Assembly (NCBI GenBank): GCA_043807255.1
Contig: JAZDGD010000009.1
Span: 29,476 to 93,475 of the forward strand
Source: Patescibacteria group bacterium
GTDB lineage: Bacteria; Patescibacteriota; Minisyncoccia; RBG-13-40-8-A
DNA: 64,000 nucleotides
Direction of reading: 5' to 3'
Below the pieces are notes generated by a model that was not told where the DNA came from, searched no databases, and saw only the letters and a program-made list of their open reading frames with translations. Numbering within the stretch: the stretch's first letter is position 1; every line of letters begins with the position of its first letter. Below, piece by piece: positions 2,880 through 60,340 of the stretch. A program made the translations under genes and the position numbers.

Positions 2880-2911
2880 ACCATATGCTCGTCAAGTTTT
2901 TTTTAAAAATG

Positions 2912-2937
2912 TCAGAGGTCATACCTCTGACATTTGT
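2912..2937. repeat. GC-rich palindrome tgtcagaggtcatacctctgaca; second copy at 63948-63975
   Basis: Perfect 10-bp stem read directly from the sequence. A near-identical copy sits at the other end of the window. Confidence 0.6.
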
Positions 2938-3000
2938 TATTTCGCGACATCGGATATTTCCTATATTACGACATCGCAAGTCGTAATATAGCCAACAAAC

Positions 3001-3570
3001 TTAAATTCTAAAAATATCATTTATTGTTTTTGGCGTAAGTTTAAATTTTTCTTTTCGAAAAGATTTTTTTGTTACCTCGTCAATGTCTTGTGTTGAAAAA
3101 GTGTCAGCACCAATCAACTCATAATGATCGTCCACTTTACCTATTCTGCCAAAAAACACATAACCCTTCTCGGTATCAAAAGTAGCCCTATATTCATTCA
3201 TCAACCATTTTTTGTTAGTTTGTAAATCCTTAATTGTAAGACTTTTGCTTCGTTCCATGTCTAACACTTCAAACATTCCGTATTCGCTATCAAGCAAATC
3301 TTTATAGAGTTTCATTTCTAATTCATTAAGATTAAAAGGATTAGTAATAATAAAATTTTTAATTGGCGTATAGCCATTATTTAATACAAAATCGTATAGG
3401 AACCATTCGTTAAAAAAGATTTCGCCTTGTTTGGTGGTTCCAAGAGAACCGCCTCTCTCTAAATCTGGACGATTATAAAATTCACGCAAAGCGCACATTA
3501 CTTCTTCGCTAAACTCGGGCGCAGTAAAATAATATTTATATACTTTTGCTATTGATCCTTTTGGTAGCAT
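3001..3570 (-). CDS. Hypothetical protein
   Basis: 189-aa ORF with typical AT-rich codon usage. No motif recognised. Confidence 0.4.
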   Translation of the reverse strand: MLPKGSIAKVYKYYFTAPEFSEEVMCALREFYNRPDLERGGSLGTTKQGEIFFNEWFLYDFVLNNGYTPIKNFIITNPFNLNELEMKLYKDLLDSEYGMFEVLDMERSKSLTIKDLQTNKKWLMNEYRATFDTEKGYVFFGRIGKVDDHYELIGADTFSTQDIDEVTKKSFRKEKFKLTPKTINDIFRI

Positions 3571-3573
3571 AAT

Positions 3574-3888
3574 TTATAAATTTTCAACGGCTTTTTTGCG
3601 ATATAACAAAATCAATCTTTCAGAATCATATTCTTTAATTTTATCTTGTGCCATAATTATTAATCCCTCCCATGCCAAAATATTAGCTTTTATTTGAGAA
3701 ATCGCTTCGTTCTTTAACTCGTGATTTTGGATTTCTGAATCATTTTCAGCAATTTTCAAAGTCGCTTTTTCTATTTCTATGTCTTCTTCCAATCTAACTA
3801 TATCGTCTTTCTCTTCCATTTTTATTTTCTCAAGTCCCTCTAATTCTTGATTTATTCTTTCCAGTTTTTTATTTTTAACTATTTCCAT
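3574..3888 (-). CDS. Hypothetical coiled-coil protein
   Basis: 104-aa Glu/Lys-rich ORF, tightly packed (3-nt gap) with the upstream ORF. Confidence 0.35.
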   Translation of the reverse strand: MEIVKNKKLERINQELEGLEKIKMEEKDDIVRLEEDIEIEKATLKIAENDSEIQNHELKNEAISQIKANILAWEGLIIMAQDKIKEYDSERLILLYRKKAVENL

Positions 3889-4112
3889 AAATTTATTTTA
3901 ATTAATTCGTTATCTTATCTTAAATCACCCTTAATTGCCTTAGATCTTTGAAGTTATGTTTTTCAACCAAAGTATCTCTATGCCAAACTTTTAAAAGTTT
4001 GGCATCCCATTCTAAATAATCGAAGGGTTCGCAAGTAGTCTTAAAATAAGAATAAATTTTATTATATTGAGATTGGAAAATTTTATATTTCATTTTTTAT
4101 ATTTTTTTAACT

Positions 4113-4880
4113 TCATAATAATTCGTATTTGCCCGAACCAATAAATCTTAAATAATTTTTATTTCTTAAAAATTGTAATTGTTGTCGGATTTTATCCTTA
4201 ATGTGTTTATTTTCCGGATGAATAATTTTTAGGTCAGTTTCGAAATTATAAATATCTTGTAAATAAAATTCTTTTTTATCTATAAAATCAATACAATTCA
4301 TAATATCTAAAATCCAGCCCCTTGCGTCTGCTTTTTTAATTTTTTTAAGAAAAACCGTTTTTTGCCATTTATCTAAAACTTGTTTTTTAGAAATTTCTTT
4401 TCCGTTTTCTACGTAAAATACTTGCCCCGCTTTGGGAATTTTTGAAAATAAAATATTTGAACCGATCCAGCCAGCTCTTCTGGCTGTCTCTTTTAGGGGT
4501 TTTCTTTTCTCAACAATTTCAGAAACAAAAAAATGTTTTGGCACAACTAAAAAATCATTTACATACAGCGACTCTAAATATCCCATAAAAAAGAAATTTG
4601 GTTTAACTTGAGAATTTATTCTTTCTATCATTTTCGAATATGCTCCAGCGGGTATAATTTTATTAATCTTTCCTTTTTTTGATTTTAATTCAAAATCTTC
4701 ATTACATTTTTCACAATAAAAATCTGCTACTGGCTTATTGTTCTCATAATTAGTAATCTTTATATTCCCACAATTAGGACAAAAAATTTCATTGTTGACC
4801 CAGTTCTCCGTTAAAACTCTCGTTTTTTGAGATAAACTTTTGTATTTATCGGCAATTTTTGTATCGAAAGATAAATTCAT
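4113..4880 (-). CDS. DpnI-like methylation-dependent (GmATC-type) restriction endonuclease
   Basis: 255 aa. N-terminus has SQKTRVLTENWV...FCPNCGN...NNKPVADFYCEKCNEDFELKSKKG (zinc ribbon plus PD-(D/E)xK region). C-terminus has IKDKIRQQLQFLRNKNYLRFIGSGKYELL (winged helix). The layout and many residues match my recollection of S. pneumoniae DpnI (254 aa). Confidence 0.55.
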   Translation of the reverse strand: MNLSFDTKIADKYKSLSQKTRVLTENWVNNEIFCPNCGNIKITNYENNKPVADFYCEKCNEDFELKSKKGKINKIIPAGAYSKMIERINSQVKPNFFFMGYLESLYVNDFLVVPKHFFVSEIVEKRKPLKETARRAGWIGSNILFSKIPKAGQVFYVENGKEISKKQVLDKWQKTVFLKKIKKADARGWILDIMNCIDFIDKKEFYLQDIYNFETDLKIIHPENKHIKDKIRQQLQFLRNKNYLRFIGSGKYELL

Positions 4881-4939
4881 ATATTTTTATCATACCTCTT
4901 TTAATAAATTTTTACCAGCATTATAGATATTTTAACAGA

Positions 4940-5137
4940 AATACCCGAGGTCTGACCTCGGGTATTTCTGTATCTTATGAGGCTAAGCCTCGTAAGATAT
5001 AATCCTGATATCGGGAGGTTCGACCTCTAACGCCCCCCCGCATCAACACTTAATATTGGGAGGTCGAACCTCTTATTATGTGGGACGTGCGACGTCCCAC
5101 ATAAATACGAAACATACGGAGAACTGTTCTCCGTATC
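4940..5137. repeat. Array of six different GC-rich hairpins in tandem
   Basis: Hairpins: cccgaggtctgacctcggg (4945), cttatgaggctaagcctcgtaag (4975), gggaggttcgacctc (5013), gggaggtcgaacctc (5058), gtgggacgtgcgacgtcccac (5080), atacggagaactgttctccgtat (5115). Confidence 0.6.
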
Positions 5138-5173
5138 TTCTATCTGTCCACTATTAATGAGAATTTGTTTGTC

Positions 5174-5291
5174 ACTGAGACAATTTCGCAGGCAAAATGC
5201 ATGGTTTCGTCCCAACAAACATGTCGTGGACGAAATTTTGCCGAGAATTAGCACGGCCACTCGCTGGAGTGGCCGATGCGTGTCGACATGA
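5174..5291 (-). ncRNA. Conserved structured element, copy A, in the 3' region of rpsI (candidate ncRNA or cis-RNA element)
   Basis: About 75% identical to 52317-52422. Compensatory changes preserve three stems. The element ends 18 nt from the rpsI stop codon. Confidence 0.4.
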
Positions 5292-5309
5292 CAAATAAAT
5301 TCGAGTGCT

Positions 5310-6544: not shown

Positions 6545-7315
6545 TTACTTTTTCTTGGCTTTTTTTGTTACTTTTTTAGATTTTTTTTCTCCGACCTCGG
6601 TCCCGATCTTCATCGGGACAACGATTGGAGCGGGTGCGAAAACTCCAAATTGTTCAAGTAAAATTTCCGCTGCTCTATTAAATGCGTATTCTGGTTCAAC
6701 GCTACCGTCGGTTTCAATATCAATTTTAACTCTATTAAAATCGGTTTTATCTCCAACGCGCATATTCTCTACTTCATAATTAACCCTCTTTACTGGAGTA
6801 TAAATTGCATCTAAAGCAATTGCGCCAATTTCTAGTTTGTCTTTCTTTCTTTGTTCAACCGGAACATAACCTAACCCCGTCCCAATTTCAAGTTCCATTT
6901 CTAATTTTGCCTTAGCACTGGTGAGCGTTGCGATATGTGCATCTTTATTAACAACCTCAATTTCTGCGGTTGTTTTAATGTCTTTTGCCTTCACTTCTTT
7001 TTCTCCACTTGCCTTTAATTCTATTTTTATTGAAGGAATTTCTGCGTTTACCTTAAATCTTATTTGTTTTAAATTTAAAATTATTTGAATCACGTCTTCC
7101 AAAACATTGGGAATAGTAGAAAATTCATGACTTACTCCCTTAATCTTAACCGAAGTGATTGCAGCGCCAGACAAAGATGACAAAATCACTCTTCGAAAGG
7201 CGTTACCAATAGTTATGCCATAGCCGGGGTAACAATTATCTATTTCAAAAATTGCACGGTTATCGCCTTTTTTAATAACTTTCGGTTTTATTGGTAAAGA
7301 TATTTTGTGTTCCAT
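6545..7315 (-). CDS. rpoA: DNA-directed RNA polymerase alpha subunit, N-terminal domain only with a Lys-rich tail (no alpha-CTD)
   Basis: 256 aa with RpoA NTD motifs (GYGITIGNAFRRVLLSS-like). Ends in KKSKKVTKKAKKK. Bacterial RpoA is normally about 330 aa. Confidence 0.8.
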   Translation of the reverse strand: MEHKISLPIKPKVIKKGDNRAIFEIDNCYPGYGITIGNAFRRVILSSLSGAAITSVKIKGVSHEFSTIPNVLEDVIQIILNLKQIRFKVNAEIPSIKIELKASGEKEVKAKDIKTTAEIEVVNKDAHIATLTSAKAKLEMELEIGTGLGYVPVEQRKKDKLEIGAIALDAIYTPVKRVNYEVENMRVGDKTDFNRVKIDIETDGSVEPEYAFNRAAEILLEQFGVFAPAPIVVPMKIGTEVGEKKSKKVTKKAKKK

Positions 7316-7324
7316 ATAAATTAT

Positions 7325-7412
7325 TATTCAAATCTACAAATTGTTATGCGAATCTACGAATTATTCGTTGATTCGGATACAGATTCGTATCATTCGGATA
7401 ATGTATTAATTA
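7325..7412. repeat. Palindromic intergenic repeat, family 2 (rpoA leader); copies at 60245-60340 and, inverted, at 40935-41003
   Basis: Shared sequence cgaatctacaaatt..gcgaatctacgaattattcgttgattcggata...attcg.atcattcggataat. Confidence 0.6.
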
Positions 7413-11011: not shown

Positions 11012-12109
11012 TTAATTTTGAATTAGTTTGATTACTCTTTTTAAGATTGGAGAAAATATATTTTTCTCTTCCAATAAATTAGAACTTAATTGATCGAGTG
11101 CAATACAAGATAGATTTTTATTATCATTTGAATCCTCAATATTCAAAATTTTTAAATTTTTCTCTTTCTTTAAATTCGATTCTATAAACGGCATTTTTGA
11201 TCCACCGCCACATAAGAAAATTTTATTTGGCAAAGAGTCATATTTTTCTGAAAAATCTTTTAAAATAATCTTAAGTCCCTTAAACCAAAACGACGTACTT
11301 GGCACAAATAATTTATCTATCTTCTTTTTGGTTTCGACACTTAATCCGTTTTTATATTGTATTTTAATGTTCTCAACGTCTTCTGGTTTTAAATTAAGAA
11401 AGTTGGCCAGAGCCTGACTAACAATTTGCCCTCCCAAATGAAAATTTTTCGTATCAATTATTTCGCCGTTATTTTTGATTAATGTGATTTCGGTTAGTTT
11501 CCCCCCAACATCAATAATCAATGCTCCACTTTTTTGTAGTTTATCTAAACTCAAATAATGATATAAGGCATAGGCATTGGGAACAATACTCAATAAATTC
11601 ATCTTTAAGTCATCAGCTAATTTTTCTAAATTTTCCAATGCTTGTGAGGACGCATATGTGTTATAAACGCTCAAACAAATATTTTGTCCTTGATCACCTA
11701 TGGGATCCGCAACCAATCTATTGTCAATTTTAATGTCTGTTACAAAAGCATCTATAATTTTAATTTCCGTATCTTTGCATTCCGTTTCGTCTCTAAATTC
11801 TTTACGAATACTATCCAATGCCTTCCATTCTAATTTCTGAATTAAATACTTCAACTCTGCTGTATCAATTTTATTATGAGAATTTTCTCTTTTAAGACAA
11901 AGGGTTGTGGTTTTGCCTTTCAGGGTGTCGTTATTTACACCCAAAATAATATCTTCTGATTTTATTTTCGATTCTTTTAAAAGTTTTTTAACTACTTTTT
12001 TACAAGATGAAAAAATATCCTCCGAGCAACTTTCTCTCACAAACACATCTGAAAGTTTGGCTTTCACATATTGTGTTCCAATATCTAAAACAATAACATT
12101 TCTCATCAA
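11012..12109 (-). CDS. Actin-like ATPase, PilM/FtsA family
   Basis: 365 aa. VLDIGTQYVKAKL (phosphate 1), IIDVGGKLTEITL, and LCGGGSKMP motifs typical of PilM/FtsA. Confidence 0.45.
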   Translation of the reverse strand: MMRNVIVLDIGTQYVKAKLSDVFVRESCSEDIFSSCKKVVKKLLKESKIKSEDIILGVNNDTLKGKTTTLCLKRENSHNKIDTAELKYLIQKLEWKALDSIRKEFRDETECKDTEIKIIDAFVTDIKIDNRLVADPIGDQGQNICLSVYNTYASSQALENLEKLADDLKMNLLSIVPNAYALYHYLSLDKLQKSGALIIDVGGKLTEITLIKNNGEIIDTKNFHLGGQIVSQALANFLNLKPEDVENIKIQYKNGLSVETKKKIDKLFVPSTSFWFKGLKIILKDFSEKYDSLPNKIFLCGGGSKMPFIESNLKKEKNLKILNIEDSNDNKNLSCIALDQLSSNLLEEKNIFSPILKRVIKLIQN

Positions 12110-12212
12110 CTATATTATATCATTAATTTTAAAACAAAACAAAACAAAGAGCAAATAAAAAAAGTCTATACGGGTTCACCGCATAGACCAGACGATTTTA
12201 TAGTCCTTTCCA

Positions 12213-12512
12213 CTACAGGCCAGCAAAAATCTCTCCACCGAGCACATCTATCTCTTGTAACCATTTTCGAAATTTTATTAATTGTCTCACGATTGTATTA
12301 AACTCACCCGCCCCATAGAATAAGTTTCTCAAGTAAGTAATAGGATATTCCACAATCGTTATCGGAATAATTAAAATGGTTATTAATAGCGATGCTAGCT
12401 GAATTAAAACAAACCATAAAACAAGAAAAAATGTGACCATAAAAAAAAGCAAAAAAAATGATATTGCCAAAAACCATTCTCCAAGCCCATCACACAATTT
12501 TTCTTTTTGCAA
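12213..12512 (-). CDS. Small membrane protein, hypothetical
   Basis: 99 aa with two predicted TM helices. Confidence 0.35.
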   Translation of the reverse strand: MQKEKLCDGLGEWFLAISFFLLFFMVTFFLVLWFVLIQLASLLITILIIPITIVEYPITYLRNLFYGAGEFNTIVRQLIKFRKWLQEIDVLGGEIFAGL

Positions 12513-12639
12513 GGTACTCTCCTTTTCGCTTTTTAGCGATAATTTAATGTATCAAATTAAAAAAATTTCGTCAAGCGTTTGCAAACACAAACACCACATA
12601 AATACCATAAACACTATATCAATATTATAAACATTCTTT

Positions 12640-12675
12640 GTTTCCATTTTTGTACGGCCGTAATAAAATGGAAAC
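12640..12675. repeat. Nested-palindrome repeat, family A, 3' copy (gtttccatttttgtacggccgtaataaaatggaaac)
   Basis: 11-bp outer stem enclosing a tacggccgta inner palindrome. Lies 30 nt downstream of the stop codon of 12706..13266. Confidence 0.7.
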
Positions 12676-12705
12676 AAAATTATCTGTTAAAAAACATGAA
12701 CTATG

Positions 12706-13266
12706 TTATTCGAATCTTACTTTTTTAACTAAAAGAAAATCTACAAAAGATTTTAAATTATATTGTTCAATCAATTCTTTGGTTTCTTTCTCTGTGTCAT
12801 ATTGGCAAACCCAAATACTTTGTTGCATTTTTTTATATCCTAAATATTTCAATCCCCTCCTAAACCAATCCCTGTCTTTTCGCCTACTTTCCGATATGTC
12901 AAATAAAACCATTTGCCACTTTCTGTCTTTTCTTAGGTTATTGTCTGTCAATTTTAATTTTGTGATAAATAATTTTTCGAAACCTTTTGATGTAATTATT
13001 ACGGCCGATTTATCCTTCGCTCTTAACGTTTTCAAATAACCACTACTTTTTAACTTACAAACCGTTCCAGCAAATCTTCTTTTGCTTTTTTCCCTTTCGC
13101 GTTTCTTTTTGTTTTCATTTGTCCACTCGTCTCTGAATGTATTGAAGTCGGAAAAACGCAACCCTCCTCTTTCGGGAATAATTTTGCCAATTACGTCTTT
13201 TGTTTTATTTTTGAAATTATATAAATCCCAAAGAAATTGTTCGGTAAATGGTAATTTAAGTCTCAT
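12706..13266 (-). CDS. Winged-helix / Cas2-VapD-like fusion protein (paralog 1)
   Basis: The C-terminal half, KWQMVLFDISESRRKDRDWFRRGLKYLGYKKMQQSIWVCQYD, matches the Cas2 core pattern (hVhhhYDI..RR..h...L...G.RhQxSVFxC). The N-terminal half, CKLKSSGYLKTL...VIITSKGFEKL, looks like a winged helix. Confidence 0.55.
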   Translation of the reverse strand: MRLKLPFTEQFLWDLYNFKNKTKDVIGKIIPERGGLRFSDFNTFRDEWTNENKKKREREKSKRRFAGTVCKLKSSGYLKTLRAKDKSAVIITSKGFEKLFITKLKLTDNNLRKDRKWQMVLFDISESRRKDRDWFRRGLKYLGYKKMQQSIWVCQYDTEKETKELIEQYNLKSFVDFLLVKKVRFE

Positions 13267-13278
13267 AGAATATTATTA

Positions 13279-13315
13279 TGTTTCTATTTTATTACGGCCG
13301 TAATAAAATAGAAAC
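13279..13315. repeat. Nested-palindrome repeat, family A, 5' copy (gtttctattttattacggccgtaataaaatagaaac)
   Basis: 13 nt upstream of the ATG of 12706..13266. Differs from the 3' copy by a compensatory C/G to T/A change that keeps the outer stem intact. Confidence 0.7.
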
Positions 13316-13396
13316 AATTTGAATTTAATAATTAAAATTAATAAATCCCATAATTAATAAACGATTAAATTTATAAATCTTTCGATTATTAAAATT

Positions 13397-15160
13397 TTAT
13401 TCCAAAATTGCCTTGATGCGACGAACGCCGGATGATGATGCTTCTTCTTTTAAAATTTTAAAATGTCCCAATTCCCCTGTTTTTTGAACGTGTGGTCCAG
13501 AACAAATTTCCTGGCTGAAGGCCAGTACCGAGGCCGTCGAGGGAGCACCACCTATTGTATAAACTTTAACCATATCTCCATATTTTGATTCAAAAACTCC
13601 CATTGCTCCAATTTCTTTCGCTTTTTCTAATGACACCTCTACACAATTCACCGGTAAATTTTGTATAATCACTTCATTCACTGCATCCTCGACTTGTTTA
13701 AGTTGATCCGCGGTCATTTTTTCTGAATGCGAAAAATCTAAACGTAATCTTTCGGCAGTAATATTTGAACCTTTTTGAAAAACATGATCACCCAAAACTT
13801 TTCTTAGTGTTGCCAACAACAAATGTGTTGCAGTGTGATATTTTACAACTTGTTCTGAATTATCCGCTAATCCCGATTTAAATTTTCCTGCAGTTGCAGT
13901 GCGTGAAAGTTCTTGATGTTGTTCGAATTCTTTTTGAAATTTTTCTTTATCAATTTTTATTCCTTTTTCTTTTGCCAACTCTTCGGTGATTTCGATCGGA
14001 AAGCCGTAAGTTTGATATAAATTAAAAGCGTCTTTGCCAGAAATTAATTCTAATTTTTTCTCGCTACGCGAGATCTCGTAAAGCGAGACAAATTCTTTTA
14101 ATCCTTTTTCTATTGTTGCTCTAAATTTTCTAGTCTCATGAGAAAGTTTGTTTAAAACTTCCGCACATTTGTCTTCGAGTTCGAACTCTCGATAATCGTT
14201 TTTATAAACGTCTATAACTTTCTGAGCAACCGATTTCAAATTTTTGGAATCGAAATTTTTATCATTTGTATAGGTGTAAACTATGGCTCGTCGAATTAAA
14301 CGACGCAAAATATATCCCTGATCCTTATTAGATGGTTCAACGCCGTCAAAAAGTAAAAACACGCTAGCTTTTATATGGTCGGCAATTATTCTTTGAGACT
14401 TGAGATTAATTGATGGCAAAAGATCTTTAATTTTATCCATTATCGGTTTGAACGTATCAATTTCATAAACATTGTTATAACCATTTAAAATCGCAGTCGT
14501 TCTTTCTAACCCCATCCCTGTATCAACATTCTTTTGTTTTAACGGTTCAAGCTTTCCATCTGCTGTTTTATTAAATTCCATAAAAACATTGTTCCAAATT
14601 TCCACTCCATCATAAAAAATCTCTGTATCTGGACCACAAGGTCCGCCAGCTGATTGCCCCCACCAATTGTCTTCTTTTCCTAAAAATTTGATTTTATTTT
14701 TTGGAATTCCTAATGATTCCCAGGTTTTTGCTGAAATCTCATCTTTCGGAACAGCTTGCCCTGAGGAACTCGAAGGGTCGCCCTTAAAGCAAGTAACCGA
14801 TAATTTTTCGATTGGCAAATTTAATTCTTTGGTCAAAAATTCCCAACTCATCTTAATTGATTCTTCTTTCCAATATGATCCGAGCCCCCAATTCCCCAGC
14901 ATTTCAAAAAAGGTTAGATGCCAATTATCGCCAACTTCGTCAATATCGATTGTTCTGATGCATTTTTGTGAATTAACCAATCTATCGCCCATGGGATGTT
15001 TTTCTCCCAATAAATACGGAACCAATGGATGCATTCCTGCGGAAATAAATAAAGCACCAGGATCATTTTCCGGAATCAAAGAAGCAGAAGGAATAATTTT
15101 GTGTCCCCTCTCTTCAAAAAACTTCAGATATTTTTCTTTCAACTCTTTTGTCGTAATCAT
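13397..15160 (-). CDS. alaS: Alanyl-tRNA synthetase (short form lacking the C-terminal region)
   Basis: 587 aa with a class II catalytic core and the editing-domain motif HTATHLL. Confidence 0.8.
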   Translation of the reverse strand: MITTKELKEKYLKFFEERGHKIIPSASLIPENDPGALFISAGMHPLVPYLLGEKHPMGDRLVNSQKCIRTIDIDEVGDNWHLTFFEMLGNWGLGSYWKEESIKMSWEFLTKELNLPIEKLSVTCFKGDPSSSSGQAVPKDEISAKTWESLGIPKNKIKFLGKEDNWWGQSAGGPCGPDTEIFYDGVEIWNNVFMEFNKTADGKLEPLKQKNVDTGMGLERTTAILNGYNNVYEIDTFKPIMDKIKDLLPSINLKSQRIIADHIKASVFLLFDGVEPSNKDQGYILRRLIRRAIVYTYTNDKNFDSKNLKSVAQKVIDVYKNDYREFELEDKCAEVLNKLSHETRKFRATIEKGLKEFVSLYEISRSEKKLELISGKDAFNLYQTYGFPIEITEELAKEKGIKIDKEKFQKEFEQHQELSRTATAGKFKSGLADNSEQVVKYHTATHLLLATLRKVLGDHVFQKGSNITAERLRLDFSHSEKMTADQLKQVEDAVNEVIIQNLPVNCVEVSLEKAKEIGAMGVFESKYGDMVKVYTIGGAPSTASVLAFSQEICSGPHVQKTGELGHFKILKEEASSSGVRRIKAILE

Positions 15161-30780: not shown

Positions 30781-30885
30781 TTTTTTATATATATTAATTA
30801 TTAATTTATTAATTGTTAGTTAATATACAGTATAGCACACATTTAATGTGGTGCCATGGGAATTCAAGCCCAAGTTTTTTAGAAT

Positions 30886-30916
30886 AAATCTTACGAGGTT
30901 AAACCTCGTAAGATTT
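30886..30916. repeat. REP-like palindrome, copy 1 (aaatcttacgaggttaaacctcgtaagattt)
   Basis: Perfect 14-bp inverted repeat overlapping the transposase stop codon. Confidence 0.7.
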
Positions 30917-31610
30917 ATTCTAATGACAATTCTCTTGCGTCGTTTACTGCCATGTCCTTCAGCCATTTTTCTATATTTTGTTTGTATTTCCCATCTCCAC
31001 CAAACACTCCCAATAAAAATTCTCTATTTGTAATTGAAGGAAAGTTCTTTTTACCTGCGTAATCCAAATAACTAGACCAACGATAATTGCCTAAATATTC
31101 CATCGCTCCGTTATAATTATTTAGTTTTCTTGCTCGCCATTCCGGAAAACTGAGATCTAGTGGATTCAAATGAATATAATATGGAAGGTTTAAGAAATGA
31201 TTTTGTTTGTCGATTAAAATTGATTTATACGTACTCTGAAATAATGTTCCCCTTCTTTTGTATTTTTTATTGAATGACATCGTATAACCGGTTCCTAATT
31301 TTTGCATAAACCTAGAAATACCATTATCTTTTTTCTGTTTCAACAATAAATGATAATGATTTGGCATCAAACAAAATGCTAAAATTTCCACAAGCAATTT
31401 TCTCTCTTTAATCTTGCGAGGTTTAACCTCGTAAGATTCTAGGTCCATAGATTTATAATATATATTTTCTGCGGGTGCCTCATCGTTAAATTCATACAGA
31501 TCGTGAATAAAACGAAGATGGTCCTTGTCGTCTGCAAATATGTTTCTCTGTTCAACTCCGTGATTTAAAACGTGATAAATTTCATTATTTTCAAATTGTG
31601 GTTTTTTCAT
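30915..31610 (-). mobile_element. tnpA: IS200/IS605-type Y1 (HUH) transposase, REP-associated (RAYT-like)
   Basis: N-terminal YHVLNHGVEQRNIF, HUH motif PNHYHLLL, and catalytic Tyr context GTLFQSTYKSILID. Flanked by REP-like palindromes. Confidence 0.6.
31410..31438. repeat. REP-like palindrome, copy 2, inside the transposase CDS in-frame
   Basis: aatcttgcgaggtttaacctcgtaagatt, which encodes SYEVKPRKI. Confidence 0.65.
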
Positions 31611-31640
31611 AATATTTTTATATTATCATAATTAAAATAT

Positions 31641-31667
31641 GTTTACGAGGTTAAACCTCGTAAGATT
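31641..31667. repeat. REP-like palindrome, copy 3
   Basis: gtttacgaggttaaacctcgtaagatta. Confidence 0.7.
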
Positions 31668-31721
31668 AATTGTAACATAAAAATTGATATTTAGATATAA
31701 TTCTGCTATATTTTAACTAAC

Positions 31722-31794
31722 GGCCCCATCGTCTAGTGGCCCAGGACATCAGATTCTCATTCTGAAAACACCGGTTCAACTCCGGTTGGGGCTA
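31722..31794 (+). tRNA. tRNA-Glu (anticodon CTC)
   Basis: Hand-folded cloverleaf: acceptor GGCCCCA/TGGGGCT, anticodon loop TTCTCAT, T-loop TTCAACT. Confidence 0.7.
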
Positions 31795-31800
31795 AAACCA

Positions 31801-31833
31801 AAAATCTTACGAGGTTTAACCTCGTAAGATTTT
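31801..31833. repeat. REP-like palindrome, copy 4
   Basis: aaaatcttacgaggtttaacctcgtaagatttt. Confidence 0.7.
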
Positions 31834-36570: not shown

Positions 36571-36827
36571 TTTGTTTCTTTGTCTTGTTTCGGGGAGTTA
36601 TCCCCCGTTATGATTAGTTATCAACACTTCTATCCACATCTCACCACCTTGATTACATTTTAATCCACAAAAATACACGTGTCAACCCCGCAGCTGCGGG
36701 GTAAATCCCTTGTGGCTAAAATTACAAATTCCCCTCTATGCAAGGGGAATTTTCAATAATCACACAAAAAGTTATGCACAGCTTTTACACTATACTGATT
36801 TTATTAAAATTAATTTGTTAAATAAAA

Positions 36828-36860
36828 TAGCCCTTAACCGCTTCGCGCGATTAAGGGCTT
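36828..36860 (-). terminator. Intrinsic terminator of the GC-rich gene (gcccttaa..ttaagggc followed by TATTTT on the minus strand)
   Basis: 8-bp stem read on the minus strand, followed by a T-rich tract. Confidence 0.5.
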
Positions 36861-36874
36861 CTGAAATTCAGAGA

Positions 36875-37486
36875 CTAGAGATTTGGCTCTTTGGCAGAAG
36901 CGAGGCCGATGCTACTGTCGTCGTTGGAGTCATCCCAGTCGATGATGCGGAGACCGTCCTTGTCGAAGATGCCGAGACTGAAAGAATCGCCATACGAATT
37001 CACATTCGAAGTTCTGACCCAGATGCGTTTAAACAAGCGTTCATTGTTCTCCAGACAATTCAGCATGATGGCATAGGCCATTTGTCGAACCATGGGAACA
37101 ACTTCGTTGGTCTGGAGCAGATGCTGCTGTTTGCCCCAGTTCTTTTTGCGGGAATTGGGAACTTCTGCTTTCCGAATCAGACGCCACTGCGGAGTTTCCT
37201 GCTCCTCGGCCCAGCCGTACGATTCGCAAAAGCCTAAATGCTGGTCGCAGAATAGACCATCCTTCACTCTGCCACGAACATCAAGAAGCGAGATCCCGAA
37301 GTCGGCAATGAGGATATGGTCGTTCTTCGTTGCTTCCAACACCTCTTCGGTAAACGGAATCACCGAAAACGCCTTGGCGATTTCATTGGTCATCGAGACA
37401 TTGAAACGCCGGACGGCTACGTCTACGCCGAGAAGATTACGACCCATGATTTCACGAACAGAATTGAGTTTTAAAAACTTGCTCAC
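36875..37486 (-). CDS. GC-rich hypothetical protein of atypical composition (probable GTG start with SD AAGGAG; alternative ATG at 37447)
   Basis: Region 36880-37480 is far more GC-rich than its flanks. The 203-aa ORF VSKFLKLNSVREIMGRNLLGVDVAVRRF...HILIADFGISLLDVRGRV... has balanced amino-acid composition. Overlapping plus-strand ORFs look spurious. Confidence 0.45.
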   Translation of the reverse strand: MSKFLKLNSVREIMGRNLLGVDVAVRRFNVSMTNEIAKAFSVIPFTEEVLEATKNDHILIADFGISLLDVRGRVKDGLFCDQHLGFCESYGWAEEQETPQWRLIRKAEVPNSRKKNWGKQQHLLQTNEVVPMVRQMAYAIMLNCLENNERLFKRIWVRTSNVNSYGDSFSLGIFDKDGLRIIDWDDSNDDSSIGLASAKEPNL

Positions 37487-37607
37487 TCTAAATCTCCTTT
37501 TAATATAAATTTTATGGCTCTCTCCGACTTTTACGTCGTAGCTCGCCATAATTTCAAAGGACAAATACAATTCATATATACCATATCGCAAAAATCTTGT
37601 CAAATTA

Positions 37608-37648
37608 TTTCTTGTCGCCATTAGAACGCCATGGCGTAATTATGGCGT
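37608..37648. repeat. Nested-palindrome repeat, family B, 3' copy (tttcttgtcgccattagaacgccatggcgtaattatggcg)
   Basis: Inner perfect palindrome acgccatggcgt with an outer cgccat/atggcg stem. Lies 31 nt downstream of the stop codon of 37680..38255. Confidence 0.7.
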
Positions 37649-37679
37649 ATCAATTAATTGAGCAATATTGGCCAACCGA

Positions 37680-38255
37680 CTAATTGATTTTAAATGTTTC
37701 TCTTAACTCTCTATCATCTCCTATTCTGTCGGCCACGATTAATCTAATTTCGTTTTCGGTTAATCCAAAAAAATCTCTCAACAAATCGATTTCATCTTTA
37801 CAATTAAATGGATGGATCCAAACACTTTTTTGAATTAATTGAAATCCCAACTCTTTTAATTTTCCGCGAAAAGCATCTCTATGGGCCTTTTTCAAATGTG
37901 CAATATCAAACATAACCAATCTCCATTTCTTGTCCCATTTTTTCGGTTTACCGATCTTTAATTCGTCTATCTGCATCCAACCAGCTTTTCTCTTGCCTTT
38001 GTCCGTAAGCGAAATATGCATGCCACCTTTTTTGATTTCTATCTTTATCAATCCTTGTTTCTTGAGTTTATAAAAATTGTCTTGCACCTTTTTGTTGCCA
38101 TATCTTTTAAATTGCTTCAATCCCCTCATTAAATTTCGTATAAAATAAGGAGAACTAGCCGCGACGACAACTGCACCAGAAATTAATAGTGCTATCAAAA
38201 TATCTTTAACAATTTCAGATTTTGGTTTTTTAAAATAATATTTATATTTTGTCAT
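37680..38255 (-). CDS. Winged-helix / Cas2-VapD-like fusion protein (paralog 2, with N-terminal TM helix)
   Basis: KKWRLVMFDIAHLKKAHRDAFRGKLKELGFQLIQKSVWIHPFN is Cas2-like. FYKLKKQGLIKIEIKKGGMHISLTDKGKR is wHTH-like. Aligns along its length with paralog 1. Confidence 0.55.
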   Translation of the reverse strand: MTKYKYYFKKPKSEIVKDILIALLISGAVVVAASSPYFIRNLMRGLKQFKRYGNKKVQDNFYKLKKQGLIKIEIKKGGMHISLTDKGKRKAGWMQIDELKIGKPKKWDKKWRLVMFDIAHLKKAHRDAFRGKLKELGFQLIQKSVWIHPFNCKDEIDLLRDFFGLTENEIRLIVADRIGDDRELRETFKIN

Positions 38256-38268
38256 ATTTGTAATTCAC

Positions 38269-38310
38269 TTTCTTGTCGCCATTAGAACGCCATGGCGTAA
38301 ATACGGCGAC
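38269..38310. repeat. Nested-palindrome repeat, family B, 5' copy
   Basis: ctttcttgtcgccattagaacgccatggcgtaaatacggcgac, 14 nt upstream of the ATG. Confidence 0.7.
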
Positions 38311-38389
38311 AACAAATAAATAATTAACAATAGATCATAGAAACATAAATAAAAATAAAATAATAATTTAAATTAAAACTCAACAATAA

Positions 38390-40934: not shown

Positions 40935-41003
40935 TATTATTCGAATGATGCGAATTCTTATCCGAATCAACGAATTCGTAGATTCGGATATTTTATTTGT
41001 AGA
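40935..41003. repeat. Palindromic intergenic repeat, family 2, inverted copy (Clp ATPase leader)
   Basis: tatccgaatcaacgaattcgtagattcggata is a near-perfect 32-bp palindrome and the reverse complement of the 7325/60245 copies. Confidence 0.6.
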
Positions 41004-59197: not shown

Positions 59198-60229
59198 TCA
59201 CTTAATAAGTTTTCCGCTTTTAATTACATGTTCAACCAAAGTTGATGAATAACCCCATTCATTATCGTACCAGGCCATAACTTTTACTAAATCGCCATCA
59301 ATAACTTTTGTAAATCCCAAATCAACAATAGCAGCGGTAGTAATGCCAATAAAATCCGAGGAAACCAATTGTTCACTAGTTACACCTAAAATCCCTTTCC
59401 AGTGTGGTTTTTTAGATGCCTCAATTAAAATATTATTAATTTCCTCAACTGAAGTTTTTCGGTTGGCTACAAAAGTTATGTCCGCCAAAGAAACCGTTGG
59501 CACCGGAGTCCTGATTGCTAGACCATCAAATACGCCTTTTAAGTTTTTTACAACCTTCGTAACTGTAATCGCTGCTCCCGTAGAAGACGGAACCAAACTA
59601 ATTGCTCCCGCCCTGCCCCTGCGCCAATCCTTCGCATCTGGACCATCAACAATTTTTTGCGTTGCCGTATAAGCATGGGTTGTATTTAAGACTGCCTTTT
59701 TTATCCCTGGATTTTCTGATAAAACCGCCATCACCGGTGCAACTGCATTGGTTGTGCAAGAACCGTTAGAAGTAATGTTTACTCGCGACATATCTTTTTC
59801 ATTAATCCCTAAAAGCACGGTTCCGCCAAGCTTAAAGCTCTCGTCGTCGTCTTTTGATGGCGCAGTGATTACCACTCTCTTGGCTCCAGCTTTTATGTGC
59901 GCAGAACTTCCCTCAAAAGAATCAAAAAATCCTGTTGCCTCAACAACCACATCTATTCCCAATCTTGCCCATGGCAATTTTATTGGATCTTTTTCTTGAA
60001 AAAAATCAATTTTTTGATTATCAATAATTAATTTTTTTTGCTTTAAATCAACACTAACCCTGTGGTCATATGCACCATAAACGCTATCGTGTTTTAAAAG
60101 ATAGGCCAAATTTTCTAAATCAGCCAAATCATTAATTGCCACGATTCTTAAATCGTTTCGTTCATGGGCTATCCTTAAAAAACTTCGACCAATTCTCCCA
60201 AATCCACTTATTGCTACTTTCGTAAACAT
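59198..60229 (-). CDS. gap: Glyceraldehyde-3-phosphate dehydrogenase
   Basis: NGFGRIGR and SCTTN motifs. Confidence 0.9.
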   Translation of the reverse strand: MFTKVAISGFGRIGRSFLRIAHERNDLRIVAINDLADLENLAYLLKHDSVYGAYDHRVSVDLKQKKLIIDNQKIDFFQEKDPIKLPWARLGIDVVVEATGFFDSFEGSSAHIKAGAKRVVITAPSKDDDESFKLGGTVLLGINEKDMSRVNITSNGSCTTNAVAPVMAVLSENPGIKKAVLNTTHAYTATQKIVDGPDAKDWRRGRAGAISLVPSSTGAAITVTKVVKNLKGVFDGLAIRTPVPTVSLADITFVANRKTSVEEINNILIEASKKPHWKGILGVTSEQLVSSDFIGITTAAIVDLGFTKVIDGDLVKVMAWYDNEWGYSSTLVEHVIKSGKLIK

Positions 60230-60244
60230 ACAATTAAATATTCG

Positions 60245-60340
60245 AATCTACAAATTAGTATACGAATCTACGAATAATTCGTTGATTCGGATAAATATTC
60301 GCATCATTCGGATAATATTACTTATATTGTAATTATACCA
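60245..60340. repeat. Palindromic intergenic repeat, family 2 (gap leader)
   Basis: cgaatctacaaattagtatacgaatctacgaataattcgttgattcggataaatattcgcatcattcggataat. Confidence 0.6.

Follow-up and report, generated by a model that had tools for sequence, protein, structure and literature searches.

What is the role of a small gene that stands between two copies of a long palindrome, when a second gene of the same kind carries a different palindrome at both of its ends? Two genes, A and B, raise this question in the window analysed here, a stretch of 64,000 nucleotides from a Patescibacteria group bacterium, a member of the candidate phyla radiation (CPR). The elements concerned are the following.

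12637..12678, no strand: palindrome A, copy after the stop, beginning 30 nt past the gene A stop
12706..13266, minus strand: gene A, mini-PaaX protein of 186 aa, probable winged helix and PaaX_M/Cas2-like domain
13279..13316, no strand: palindrome A, promoter-proximal copy (TGTTTCTATTTTATTACGG and CCGTAATAAAATAGAAACA on the two sides of the dyad), ending 12-13 nt before the gene A ATG
37612..37650, no strand: palindrome B, copy after the stop, ending 8 nt ahead of the next promoter's -35 box
37680..38255, minus strand: gene B, mini-PaaX paralogue of 191 aa with a hydrophobic N-terminal segment
38273..38312, no strand: palindrome B, promoter-proximal copy with outer and inner stems (TTGTCGCC-GTATTT-ACGCCA and TGGCGT-TCTAAT-GGCGACAA on the two sides of the dyad)

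Genes A and B are diverged paralogues. Both reading frames are present as first described, and residues 71–171 of A align with residues 63–165 of B (BLASTP, 33% identity, E 2e-13). The preliminary description extended this alignment to the whole length of the proteins, which is overstated, because the N-terminal ~70 residues show no significant alignment. Both proteins belong to Pfam PF20803 (PaaX_M, cut-off 24), with 67 bits for A (E 1.2e-18) and 70 bits for B (E 2.3e-19). Their scores remain below the cut-offs of the Cas2 models PF09827 (21.6 bits for A and 19.9 for B, cut-off 23.8) and TIGR01573 (23.9 and 21.5 bits, cut-off 24.5). The PaaX equivalog model TIGR02277 aligns with residues 67–177 of A and 38–161 of B and scores them at 27.8 and 39.8 bits (cut-off 264.55), and hhalign covers only residues 61–165 of the 316 residues of PaaX. 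The Pfam PaaX N-terminal domain has no match in A or B at E<=1. The PaaX_C effector domain has no Pfam match either, and both proteins stop directly after the Cas2-like domain.

The AlphaFold2 model of gene A contains a C-terminal β-α-β-β-α-β domain with pLDDT >90, composed of strand 117–122, helix 126–141, strands 145–148 and 151–154, helix 159–168 and strand 175–180, which corresponds to a ferredoxin-like fold. The N-terminal part is modelled as helices followed by a β-hairpin at residues 78–91, with pLDDT of 66–82. A Foldseek comparison with the PDB returned E. coli PaaX (8a39) as the best match, aligned over 124 columns, followed by many Cas2 structures with probability of at least 0.97. 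Neither the family profile nor protein A matched any PDB sequence at E<=10, and the PaaX and Cas2 relatives were reached by fold comparison only. The PaaX_M match, the confident C-terminal model and the fold comparison agree with the Cas2-like C-terminal core proposed earlier. The proposed fusion to a winged helix fits the predicted helices and hairpin and the length of the PaaX alignment. A and B are truncated PaaX-like regulators, composed of a probable winged helix and PaaX_M and lacking the effector domain. In gene A, the FDI(S)E motif occupies residues 122–126, Q149 is part of the QQSIW motif and G67 is located in the recognition helix. The Cas2-type aspartate D123 (FDIPE) is invariant in 29 family sequences and absent from E. 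coli PaaX, so a catalytic role is possible. The toxin-like RNase and RNA-processing roles offered in the preliminary description are conceivable.

Among described proteins, PaaX of E. coli and Pseudomonas (PDB 8a39 and 3l09; TIGR02277), the repressor of the phenylacetate catabolon, offers the best match both in fold and, through PaaX_M, in Pfam. In PaaX, an N-terminal winged helix stands ahead of the Cas2-like central domain, an order that the window proteins probably share. The preliminary description knew of no family with such an organisation. This statement has to be given up, as the window proteins are truncated members of the PaaX lineage, and E. coli PaaX recognises a palindrome of 39 bp (TGATTC-N27-GAATCA), repressing its own gene by occluding RNA polymerase (PMC9493321). 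PaaX differs from the window proteins in its length of 316 aa with a C-terminal effector (phenylacetyl-CoA) domain, in its paa neighbourhood, whereas no paa genes lie near genes A and B, whose products score far below the TIGR02277 cut-off, and in its missing FDIPE motif. Furthermore, the window elements are palindromic over their whole 36–40 bp, with a GC-rich core and a second copy after the stop, and a CPR genome holds several paralogues, each with a private site.

With Cas2 and VapD, the window proteins share the ferredoxin-like fold and two motifs, (Y/F)DI where strand 1 ends and Q-x-S-(V/I)-(F/W). They differ from Cas2 in the probable fusion to a winged helix and in their scores below the Cas2 gathering cut-offs; in addition, they have no adjoining cas1, and the 64 kb contain no array of spaced repeats. 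A and B are not CRISPR Cas2, in agreement with the earlier view that this is no CRISPR locus; the genes adjoining A and B are housekeeping genes. The family comprises 5,722 clusters at 50% identity, and its members are often named 'CRISPR-associated endonuclease Cas2' in public records, otherwise 'hypothetical'; the CRISPR-associated label is wrong. An assignment to the Y1 (HUH) proteins was also rejected, as neither protein matches Y1_Tnp. No paper linking PaaX to Cas2, or CPR to Cas2 with a winged helix, was found in the literature.

Each gene is surrounded by two palindrome copies, as first reported, and the reported spacing was likewise reproduced, with the 5' copy ~12-13 nt from the ATG and the 3' copy ~30 nt from the stop. 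The two copies of palindrome A differ by one compensated pair, the C-G to T-A change noted before, and by uncompensated changes near the core. In palindrome B, the upstream copy contains a non-complementary segment of 6+6 nt between the outer and inner stems, and one outer arm of the downstream copy is degenerate, with GGCGTA in place of GGCGAC. The cores of families A and B occur exactly twice each in the 64 kb, where 0.00–0.02 occurrences are expected by chance, and looser searches of the same 64 kb revealed no extra copies. Three of the four window copies form predicted DNA hairpins of -12 to -13.5 kcal/mol, with z-scores of -4 to -8. An Rfam scan yielded tRNAs only and no family matching the palindromes. 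A 66-nt inverted repeat around gene A was considered as a pair of terminal inverted repeats and rejected, as it consists of the palindrome plus an AT-rich flank with chance-level identity.

The layout is a property of the family. Among 75 homologous CPR loci, 51 have flanks with a common locus-specific palindrome, scored above the 99th percentile of a null of mismatched loci. Palindrome density at the gene ends is 3.04 per kb, compared with 0.10 per kb elsewhere in the same loci (~30-fold), and paralogues inside one genome carry different, private palindromes. The neighbouring genes show no conserved partner: the 147 neighbours form 105 clusters, most of them of housekeeping genes. The palindromes are near-perfect over 36–50 bp and far more symmetric than a dimer operator needs, and their dyad symmetry is kept through change. 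At arm positions 8–17, the changes between copies of one locus comprise 23 compensated doubles, 7 uncompensated doubles and 30 singles. Such symmetric, pairing-preserving changes point to hairpin or cruciform formation or to self-correction of the palindrome. The sense-strand mismatches include 39 G-T and 29 A-C, a bias that is not significant.

Solitary palindromes with the same architecture are dispersed in CPR metagenome contigs, often between unrelated housekeeping genes, and on other CPR contigs most such palindromes have no family member nearby. The genes beside them are equally diverse and none carries PaaX_M. When the solitary palindromes were considered as empty sites, no case was found in which both neighbours were common to an occupied locus.

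Protein and palindrome change together across the family. Residue 149 in the Cas2-like domain is Q at 36 loci with a G/C base adjacent to the dyad and K or R at 18 loci with A/T, so that 54 of 57 loci agree and 3 are exceptions. In path-independent contrasts, 10 of 12 agree, 2 are unchanged and none is opposite (sign test p = 0.002). Gene B, which combines a QKS motif with an A/T palindrome centre, obeys this centre rule, as do 7 out-of-sample metagenome members. Cas2 is not known to read sequence, and in this respect the window family, in which one residue of a Cas2-like motif covaries with a specific base, differs from it. In addition, residue 67 of the recognition helix tracks outer-arm position 15. 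It is Q in 15 of 16 loci with [AG]TAG arms and K, R or E in all 13 loci with [AG]TAC arms (Fisher 2e-7); it is N in 4 of 5 loci with TCTTA in the arms, and all 5 N loci have TCTT[AG] arms. Only 4 independent contrasts stand behind this recognition-helix covariation. The two covariations support the earlier proposal that the protein recognises its own flanking palindromes: each protein most likely reads its private palindrome, placing its Cas2-like dimer over the centre and its winged helices along the arms.

We consider it probable that a mini-PaaX dimer binds its private palindromic operator of 36–40 bp and represses its own gene. The protein would function as a small PaaX-type regulator in which a winged helix-turn-helix is joined to a Cas2-like dimerisation domain, without the ligand-binding C-terminal domain. 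In the proposed complex on duplex DNA, the two winged helices would read the outer arms ~11-17 bp from the dyad, the Cas2-like dimer would lie over the GC-rich centre, and T/A tracts would run between the centre and arm zones. The upstream copy would overlap the promoter of its own gene, the right end of the palindrome serving in many members as a TATAAT box 6-9 nt before the ATG. Binding at this copy would thus repress transcription of the gene, as is the case for E. coli PaaX at Px. By analogy, the geometry resembles that of the 39-bp E. coli PaaX operator, in which widely separated half-sites serve to repress the own promoter. No structure of a PaaX–operator complex had been reported as of a 2022 review (PMC9493321).

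The positions of promoter-like motifs are consistent with the proposed autorepression. A perfect TATAAT is found at arm positions 16–21 in 9 of 36 upstream copies, compared with 1 of 36 downstream copies, and in 9 of 17 cases the distance from the end of the -10 box to the ATG is 6-9 nt. The upstream copy thus appears to overlap a promoter that is often of leaderless type, and where the TATAAT is placed in this way, the own promoter would not transcribe the copy. A TGnTATAAT-N7-ATG design also precedes the ftsA-like gene in this lineage. In cassette A, CATAAT follows the right arm of the upstream palindrome 8 nt before the ATG, and the -35/-10 elements that can be matched within the palindrome are weak even at best. 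For cassette B, the start codon is uncertain, as the orthologue in L208 has ATA at this place, and with it the geometry of the promoter.

The downstream copy, located on or just past the stop codon, is probably a second operator that also acts as a hairpin or roadblock between the regulator and the transcription unit that follows. The downstream copies are transcribed over their full length, some of them with T-rich tails, and their T-richness is not significantly above that of upstream copies (p = 0.18). The lac, gal and deo repressors are autoregulated and use auxiliary operators and looping. They resemble the window units in having two operators a few hundred bp apart that bracket or overlap the regulated promoter and gene, but in the window the candidate second operator is found at the 3' end of the gene for the regulator itself, and the two long palindromes are near-identical. 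In both window cassettes, the next unit is an accessory gene without a family match that has its own sigma-70 promoter. The features of the two inserts are listed below.

12135..13396, minus strand: insert A in full, bounded by the stop of alaS and the TGATATAAT promoter of the ftsA-like gene
12153..12189, minus strand: intrinsic-terminator-like hairpin and T-run closing insert A
12213..12512, minus strand: cargo ORF of insert A, 99 aa, hydrophobic, no family match
12546..12575, minus strand: sigma-70-type promoter (CTTGACG-17-TGaTACATT) for the gene behind cassette A, kept in the orthologous locus L081
36791..38389, minus strand: insert B in full, bounded by the stop of the clpC-like gene and the conserved leader of mraZ
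36875..37549, minus strand: cargo ORF of insert B, ~224 aa (MASYDVKVGE...), no Pfam, PADLOC or PHROG match
37575..37603, minus strand: sigma-70-type promoter (TTGACA-17-TATATA) for the cargo ORF of insert B, read from sequence

Both units are accessory insertions, each with an extra gene that matches no family. The genes around them are alaS, the ftsA-like gene, the clpC-like gene and mraZ, with no paa gene among them. Insert A is missing in the relatives L203, L204 and L205, where the gap between alaS and the ftsA-like gene is 26 nt only. Insert B is missing in L206 and L207 and found in L208, and a repeat of the clpC 3' end (GTGTAA) forms its right junction. The empty sites in L203–L207 are clean, with no solo palindrome. 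The insert boundaries lie ~80 nt upstream of the first palindrome and, on the other side, past a further promoter, the cargo gene and the terminator, so the palindromes are internal to the inserts and are not recombination sites. The orthologue L081 keeps the layout, with both palindrome copies changed in the same direction, and carries at the place of the insert A cargo ORF an ORF that is not homologous to it. PADLOC and PHROGs gave no match that would assign a defence or phage role to either cargo ORF.

If the proposed autorepression is correct, a large CPR family labelled 'hypothetical' or Cas2 would become a set of compact private regulator–operator pairs with a testable recognition code, in which residue 149 specifies the central base pair and residue 67 arm position 15. 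The role of the N27 spacer in PaaX operators also becomes testable, provided that the Cas2-like dimer does touch the operator centre. Repressors of ~180 aa, each paired with its 40-bp operator and free of cross-reaction, could moreover serve as orthogonal genetic switches.

An unlikely alternative is that the protein is specific for hairpins, and that the palindromes act as single-stranded DNA or cruciform hairpins, or as RNA in read-through transcripts. The winged helix would then hold the stem and the Cas2-like domain would contact, perhaps cleave, the 4-nt loop, resulting in transcript processing, control of termination or a relation between protein and dispersed palindromes as in REP/RAYT. 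The near-perfect symmetry kept through change and the stable hairpins predicted for three window copies fit this alternative, but the non-significant G-T over A-C bias argues against selection on one RNA strand, and no Rfam family matches. In a hairpin, the base with which residue 149 covaries would belong to the loop, whereas the readout of arm bases by the recognition helix, as its covariation suggests, requires the major groove of B-form DNA and is hard to reconcile with RNA. As in Cas2, the FDIPE aspartate never varies, but among solved structures the nearest relative is a repressor of duplex DNA with the same operator length. Transcription of the downstream copies is also in favour, whereas many upstream copies, with their leaderless-placed TATAAT, would not be transcribed by their own promoter. 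The scatter of solitary palindromes over CPR contigs recalls REP elements; however, with two copies each of families A and B in the window and none scoring at least 12 in the 75 kb of the relatives' loci, the palindromes are not REP-like in number.

A further reading, which we regard as quite doubtful, goes beyond transcriptional control. The Cas2-like domain would read, and perhaps nick, the centre or extruded loop, the proteins and their palindromes, gene-flanking as well as solitary, would constitute a CPR-wide protein–palindrome system like RAYT/REP, and the family would represent a surviving link between DNA binders of the transcription-factor type and the Cas2 of CRISPR adaptation. The invariant Cas2-type aspartate, the symmetry kept through change and the occurrence of solitary palindromes are compatible with this reading. 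The base-reading part is the only one that the residue 149 covariation directly supports; if true, a sequence-reading Cas2-like fold would bear on the origin of Cas2. Like REP/RAYT (IS200-like Y1), the family has genes flanked by cognate palindrome copies, paralogues with different palindromes and solitary palindromes elsewhere. It differs in that the window proteins are not HUH/Y1 and in having two copies per palindrome family instead of dozens, and no evidence for multiplication of the palindromes was found. A RAYT example is present in the same window, separate from A and B: a Y1_Tnp gene at 30915-31610.

The preliminary description also offered a minimal mobile cassette. That the two palindromes are the ends or recombination sites of such an element, which would move the gene between sites, is now very improbable. 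Both units are present in some and missing from other close relatives whose gene order is otherwise the same, but the empty sites place the insert boundaries well outside the palindromes and retain no solo palindrome. Possible target duplications are short (AGTRTAA at insert B, TAAAAT at insert A), rich in A and T, and carry little information. No transposase or integrase is found in or adjoining the units, and no relative was found on viral contigs. The L081 protein is 81% identical to A, compared with 75% for the flanking AlaRS and 53% for the FtsA-like protein. However, the window alaS is closest to that of L203 and the window ftsA-like gene to that of L204, and exchange by homologous recombination would explain these mosaic identities. 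Site-specific gene cassettes (integron-like or dif-flanked) were rejected as well, since the empty sites in L203–L207 carry no palindrome and the junctions lie elsewhere.

That the palindromes are generic CPR intergenic terminators or punctuation, standing beside these genes by chance, is hardly credible: similar palindromes do occur between unrelated housekeeping genes on many CPR contigs, some with A/T-rich flanks as in bidirectional terminators, but the locus-specific pairs, the enrichment at the gene ends, the restriction of each window family to its own gene and above all the two independent protein–base covariations, which tie the proteins to their palindromes, contradict it.

Gene A and gene B, the two mini-PaaX paralogues of the window, each form a cassette with two copies of a private palindrome (family A and family B), and each cassette lies on a segment that also carries a cargo ORF (insert A and insert B).

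Features in the window
12706-13266, minus strand: gene A, ORF of 186 aa, locus tag V1686_02230 (Patescibacteria metagenome-assembled genome, 103-kb contig)
37680-38255, minus strand: gene B, ORF of 191 aa
13279-13316 and 12637-12678: palindrome family A, two copies bracketing gene A
38273-38312 and 37612-37650: palindrome family B, two copies bracketing gene B
~12135-13396: insert A, in the order 80-nt leader, palindrome, gene, second palindrome, sigma-70 promoter, 99-aa cargo ORF, terminator
~36791-38389: insert B, with cassette B, strong promoter, ~224-aa cargo ORF, terminator
4113-4880: DpnI-like methyl-directed restriction enzyme (PF06044, E 2e-74), inside a ~2880-5300 insertion

Both proteins match Pfam PF20803 ('PaaX protein central Cas2-like domain') with E values of 1e-18 to 1e-19. 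Cas2 models also match, under their curated cut-offs, and TIGR02277, the equivalog model of PaaX (the phenylacetate-catabolon repressor), scores far under its cut-off. The AlphaFold2 model of protein A (mean pLDDT 77, above 90 in the C-terminal domain) is composed of helices, a beta-hairpin wing and a beta-alpha-beta-beta-alpha-beta domain. In a Foldseek comparison with the PDB, E. coli W PaaX comes first (8a39, probability 1.00, 124 columns), followed by many Cas2 structures (probability at least 0.97). Profile and predicted fold agree with the Cas2/VapD-like C-terminal core proposed in the preliminary description. The two proteins end directly after this domain and therefore lack the effector-binding C-terminal domain present in PaaX; the hhalign alignment reaches only PaaX residues 61-165. 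The Cas2-type motif FDIPE, which E. coli PaaX lacks, is kept in the family, its aspartate D123 being invariant (29/29 sequences). The family is large: searching 1.84 billion representatives with a profile gives 3,667 clusters at E<=1e-10 and 5,722 at E<=1e-3, and the matches listed are almost all 170-200 aa long. In public records these proteins are named 'hypothetical protein' or 'CRISPR-associated endonuclease Cas2'. The family is a PaaX-type variant and not a new kind of system, and in PaaX it has a described relative, whereas the initial description knew of no described family with such an organisation.

Proteins A and B share 33% identity over 104 residues (BLASTP E 2e-13). This alignment covers the C-terminal two thirds and not the whole length as first described, the N-terminal ~70 residues giving no BLASTP alignment. 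The window holds no further family member. The palindrome cores TACGGCCGTA and ACGCCATGGCGT occur exactly twice each in 64 kb (chance expectation 0.00 and 0.02), and searches with the outer arms and a free spacer, or with the core allowing mismatches, found no further family A or B copy in the window. The palindrome-gene spacings reported earlier hold, as does the compensated C-G to T-A difference between the family A copies; the copy after the gene B stop has lost one outer arm. No CRISPR-like array was found within the 64-kb window, as first stated, and an Rfam scan returned six tRNAs and nothing else. A 20-nt unit forms 2.2 tandem repeats (12589-12633) in the stretch that separates the downstream copy of family A from the promoter of the cargo ORF. 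In the gene B orthologue of comparison locus L208 (3045-3113, against window 38196-38264), ATA replaces the ATG and the next ~20 codons keep the frame with synonymous changes, which would mean either a non-canonical start codon or a true start elsewhere.

The bracketing observed for both paralogues is confirmed and generalises to related genomes. In 80 loci from genomes of the candidate phyla radiation (CPR, Patescibacteria), the 150 nt upstream of the gene were compared with the 150 nt downstream; in 51/75 loci the best common segment lies above the 99th percentile of a null made from mismatched loci. The element common to both flanks is in every case a palindrome specific to its locus, with one architecture: a variable outer arm, often starting with TATAG or TATAC, leads into a T-run, then 1-3 variable bases and a GC-rich central palindrome (CGGCCG, CGATCG, AAGCTT, GCGGCCGC, CAATTG or CAGCTG), after which comes the mirror image; the dyad symmetry reaches ~18 nt per side. 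Long palindromes are 30-fold denser near the gene ends (up to 150 nt away) than elsewhere in these loci (3.04 versus 0.10 per kb). Moreover, several genomes have two or three paralogues with a different palindrome for each. Most neighbouring genes run in the same direction, and they are diverse (147 fall into 105 clusters). The paired-palindrome layout characterises the family. At two loci (L059 2276-3522 and L075 965-2310) the palindrome pair encloses the PaaX-like gene together with an upstream gene, HAM1/ITPase-like in L059, judged by its N-terminal sequence alone, and in L075 a 193-aa ORF of unassigned function.

Covariation links each protein to its own palindromes. We aligned 57 proteins with the consensus half-sites of their palindromes and calculated mutual information with average-product correction; the strongest pairs join central DNA positions with residues 126-149 of the Cas2-like domain. 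Residue 149, the x of L-Q-x-S-(I/V)-W in the beta2-beta3 turn, is Q where the dyad-adjacent base is G/C (centres CGG|CCG, AAG|CTT and CAG|CTG, the bar marking the dyad; 36 loci) and K or R where it is A/T (CGA|TCG and CAA|TTG; 18 loci), with 3 exceptions among the 57. A neighbour-joining tree from which that column was left out gives 12 path-independent pairs with different central bases; residue 149 switches as predicted in 10, is unchanged in 2 and is opposite in 0 (sign test p = 0.002). Gene B, outside this set, obeys the rule (QKS, centre CCA|TGG), and of seven metagenome members beside CGG|CCG palindromes five have Q, two have A and none has K/R. This pairing of K/R with A/T and of Q with G/C at the centre could reflect readout through the minor groove. 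In addition, residue 126 (E or Q in FDIP[E/Q]) tracks CG versus AA at positions 3-2. Residue 67, in the recognition helix two positions past the near-invariant F65, is Q in 15/16 loci with [AG]TAG arms and K, R or E in 13/13 with [AG]TAC arms (Fisher 2e-7); it is N in 4/5 loci with TCTTA arms, and TCTT[AG] arms are present in 5/5 N loci. Independent contrasts for this residue number only 4, of which 3 agree and 0 are opposite. These two covariations support the earlier proposal that each protein would recognise its own flanking palindromes, the winged helices probably lying on the arms and the Cas2-like domain at the centre. The known geometry of the PaaX operator, TGATTC-N27-GAATCA (PMC9493321), agrees with this placement.

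The best explanation is that the family consists of minimal PaaX-type autoregulators, each with a predicted private long palindromic operator, one copy of which would lie at its own promoter and the second at the gene end. To our knowledge, the bracketing layout, the private specificities, and the evidence suggesting that the Cas2-like domain shares in base-specific recognition are new to the searchable literature. The distance from upstream dyad to ATG peaks at 27-33 nt, and a perfect TATAAT stands at arm positions 16-21 in 9/36 upstream versus 1/36 downstream copies. In 9/17 cases the distance from the end of the -10 box to the ATG is 6-9 nt, a spacing that corresponds to leaderless-mRNA geometry as judged from sequence. 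Cassette A has CATAAT 8 nt ahead of the ATG, and its orthologue in locus L081 has TTGTCT-17-TATAAA inside the palindrome. The downstream dyad lies only 14-22 nt past the stop codon in most loci, so that the stop codon falls within the left arm; in the window it lies farther away, at 48 nt for gene A. T-richness is not significantly higher in the downstream copies than in the upstream ones (p = 0.18).

A hairpin-directed or catalytic role of the proteins is possible. Several features fit autoregulation poorly. The symmetry of the palindromes goes far beyond what an operator requires; between the two copies of a locus, arm positions 8-17 show 23 compensated doubles (~2 expected under independence), 7 uncompensated doubles and 30 singles. 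Hairpin formation, either selected or only templating repair, would explain such symmetric changes; the mismatches show no significant strand bias (39 G-T versus 29 A-C). The Cas2-type aspartate is likewise not explained by the autoregulator reading.

Both window examples sit on small accessory modules, and comparison with relatives indicates that both cassettes are accessory insertions. Three relatives (L203, L204 from a 626-kb contig of GCA_965231075.1, and L205; AlaRS 92%, 79% and 74% identical to the window) pass from the alaS stop through 26 nt (AATATTTTTGTGATATAATATAGTTG) to the ftsA-like ATG, cassette A and palindrome being absent from this junction. L081 has cassette A (PaaX-like protein 81% identical to A, AlaRS 75% and FtsA-like 53% identical to the window) and conserves the sigma-70 promoter of insert A; the cargo ORFs of the two are non-homologous. 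The window is mosaic, alaS being nearest L203, and the ftsA-like gene and the next gene nearest L204. Within 11012-15160, FtsA-like is 55% identical to that of L203 and 89% to that of L204; set against the AlaRS values, these opposite identities place a recombination breakpoint at the insertion point of cassette A. For insert B, L206 and L207 (ClpC-like 82% identical to the window) pass from the clpC-like gene to the mraZ leader without it, whereas in L208 (88%) the orthologue of B is present and its palindromes are the same. The insert B promoter (TTGACA-17-TATATA) starts 8 nt after the downstream palindrome, and its ~224-aa ORF has no family match. The right junction repeats the last clpC bases, GTGTAA, which may be a short target duplication of low information. 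The palindromes are internal to the inserts and no copy is kept at the empty sites, so they are not recombination sites, and the suggestion that they end a minimal mobile cassette fails.

An extended -10 promoter, TGATATAAT, of the same design as the -10 boxes of the upstream palindromes, stands 7 nt before the ftsA-like start codon (TGATATAAT-N7-ATG; window 12110-12134) with no ribosome-binding site, and is conserved at the alaS/ftsA-like junction in four genomes (window, L203, L204 and L205); leaderless mRNAs may therefore be common in the lineage.

Palindromes also occur alone, a further feature that autoregulation leaves unaccounted for. A metagenome scan for TTTTC-N0-2-ACGGCCGT-N0-2-GAAAA gave 121 sites, 8 with a family member within 120 nt; 14 are Neisseria uptake-sequence pairs, and ~55 are long CPR-type palindromes, 5 of which abut a family member. 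The other CPR-type palindromes lie mostly between co-directional housekeeping genes, with no gene family enriched beside them; additional binding sites, scars of deletions and a separate element are candidate explanations. They are scarce in the lineage of the window: no palindrome scores >=12 in 75 kb of relatives' loci, the L081 and L208 copies flanking PaaX-like genes being imperfect (score <12). A palindrome, GTAACAC(A)TTTTTCACGGCCGTGAAAAA(T)GTGTTAC (34-38 bp), is nearly identical across contigs of GC content 0.33-0.52 (L083, L084, L087, L102, L112, L115, L145, L155, L170, L178, L186, L188 and L193), beside unrelated housekeeping genes (leuS-like, tatD, dnaK/grpE) with no PaaX-like gene nearby.

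The window contains other elements. Four copies of a different palindrome, AATCTTACGAGGTT[A/T]AACCTCGTAAGATT (30879-31833), flank an IS200/Y1-transposase-like gene (30915-31610, minus strand; PF01797, E 8e-11), and two of them enclose tRNA-Glu (31722-31794); a fifth lies 26 kb away (4971-4999). Gene and palindrome look like a REP/RAYT pair. The rpsI and CAP-domain genes are adjacent in L204, so the segment between them, ~2880-5300, is another small insertion; besides the DpnI-like gene it holds a cluster of unrelated palindromes and two ORFs (3001-3570 and 3574-3888) with no family match. Finally, the ATTCG-rich palindrome TATCCGAATCAACGAATTCGTAGATTCGGATA (40959-40990) lies ~30 nt upstream of the clpC-like start, has two 90-nt relatives in the window (7313-7402 and 60227-60316) and is a candidate stress-regulon operator; the half-sites in it, GAATC/GATTC, resemble that of E. 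coli PaaX but are spaced differently.
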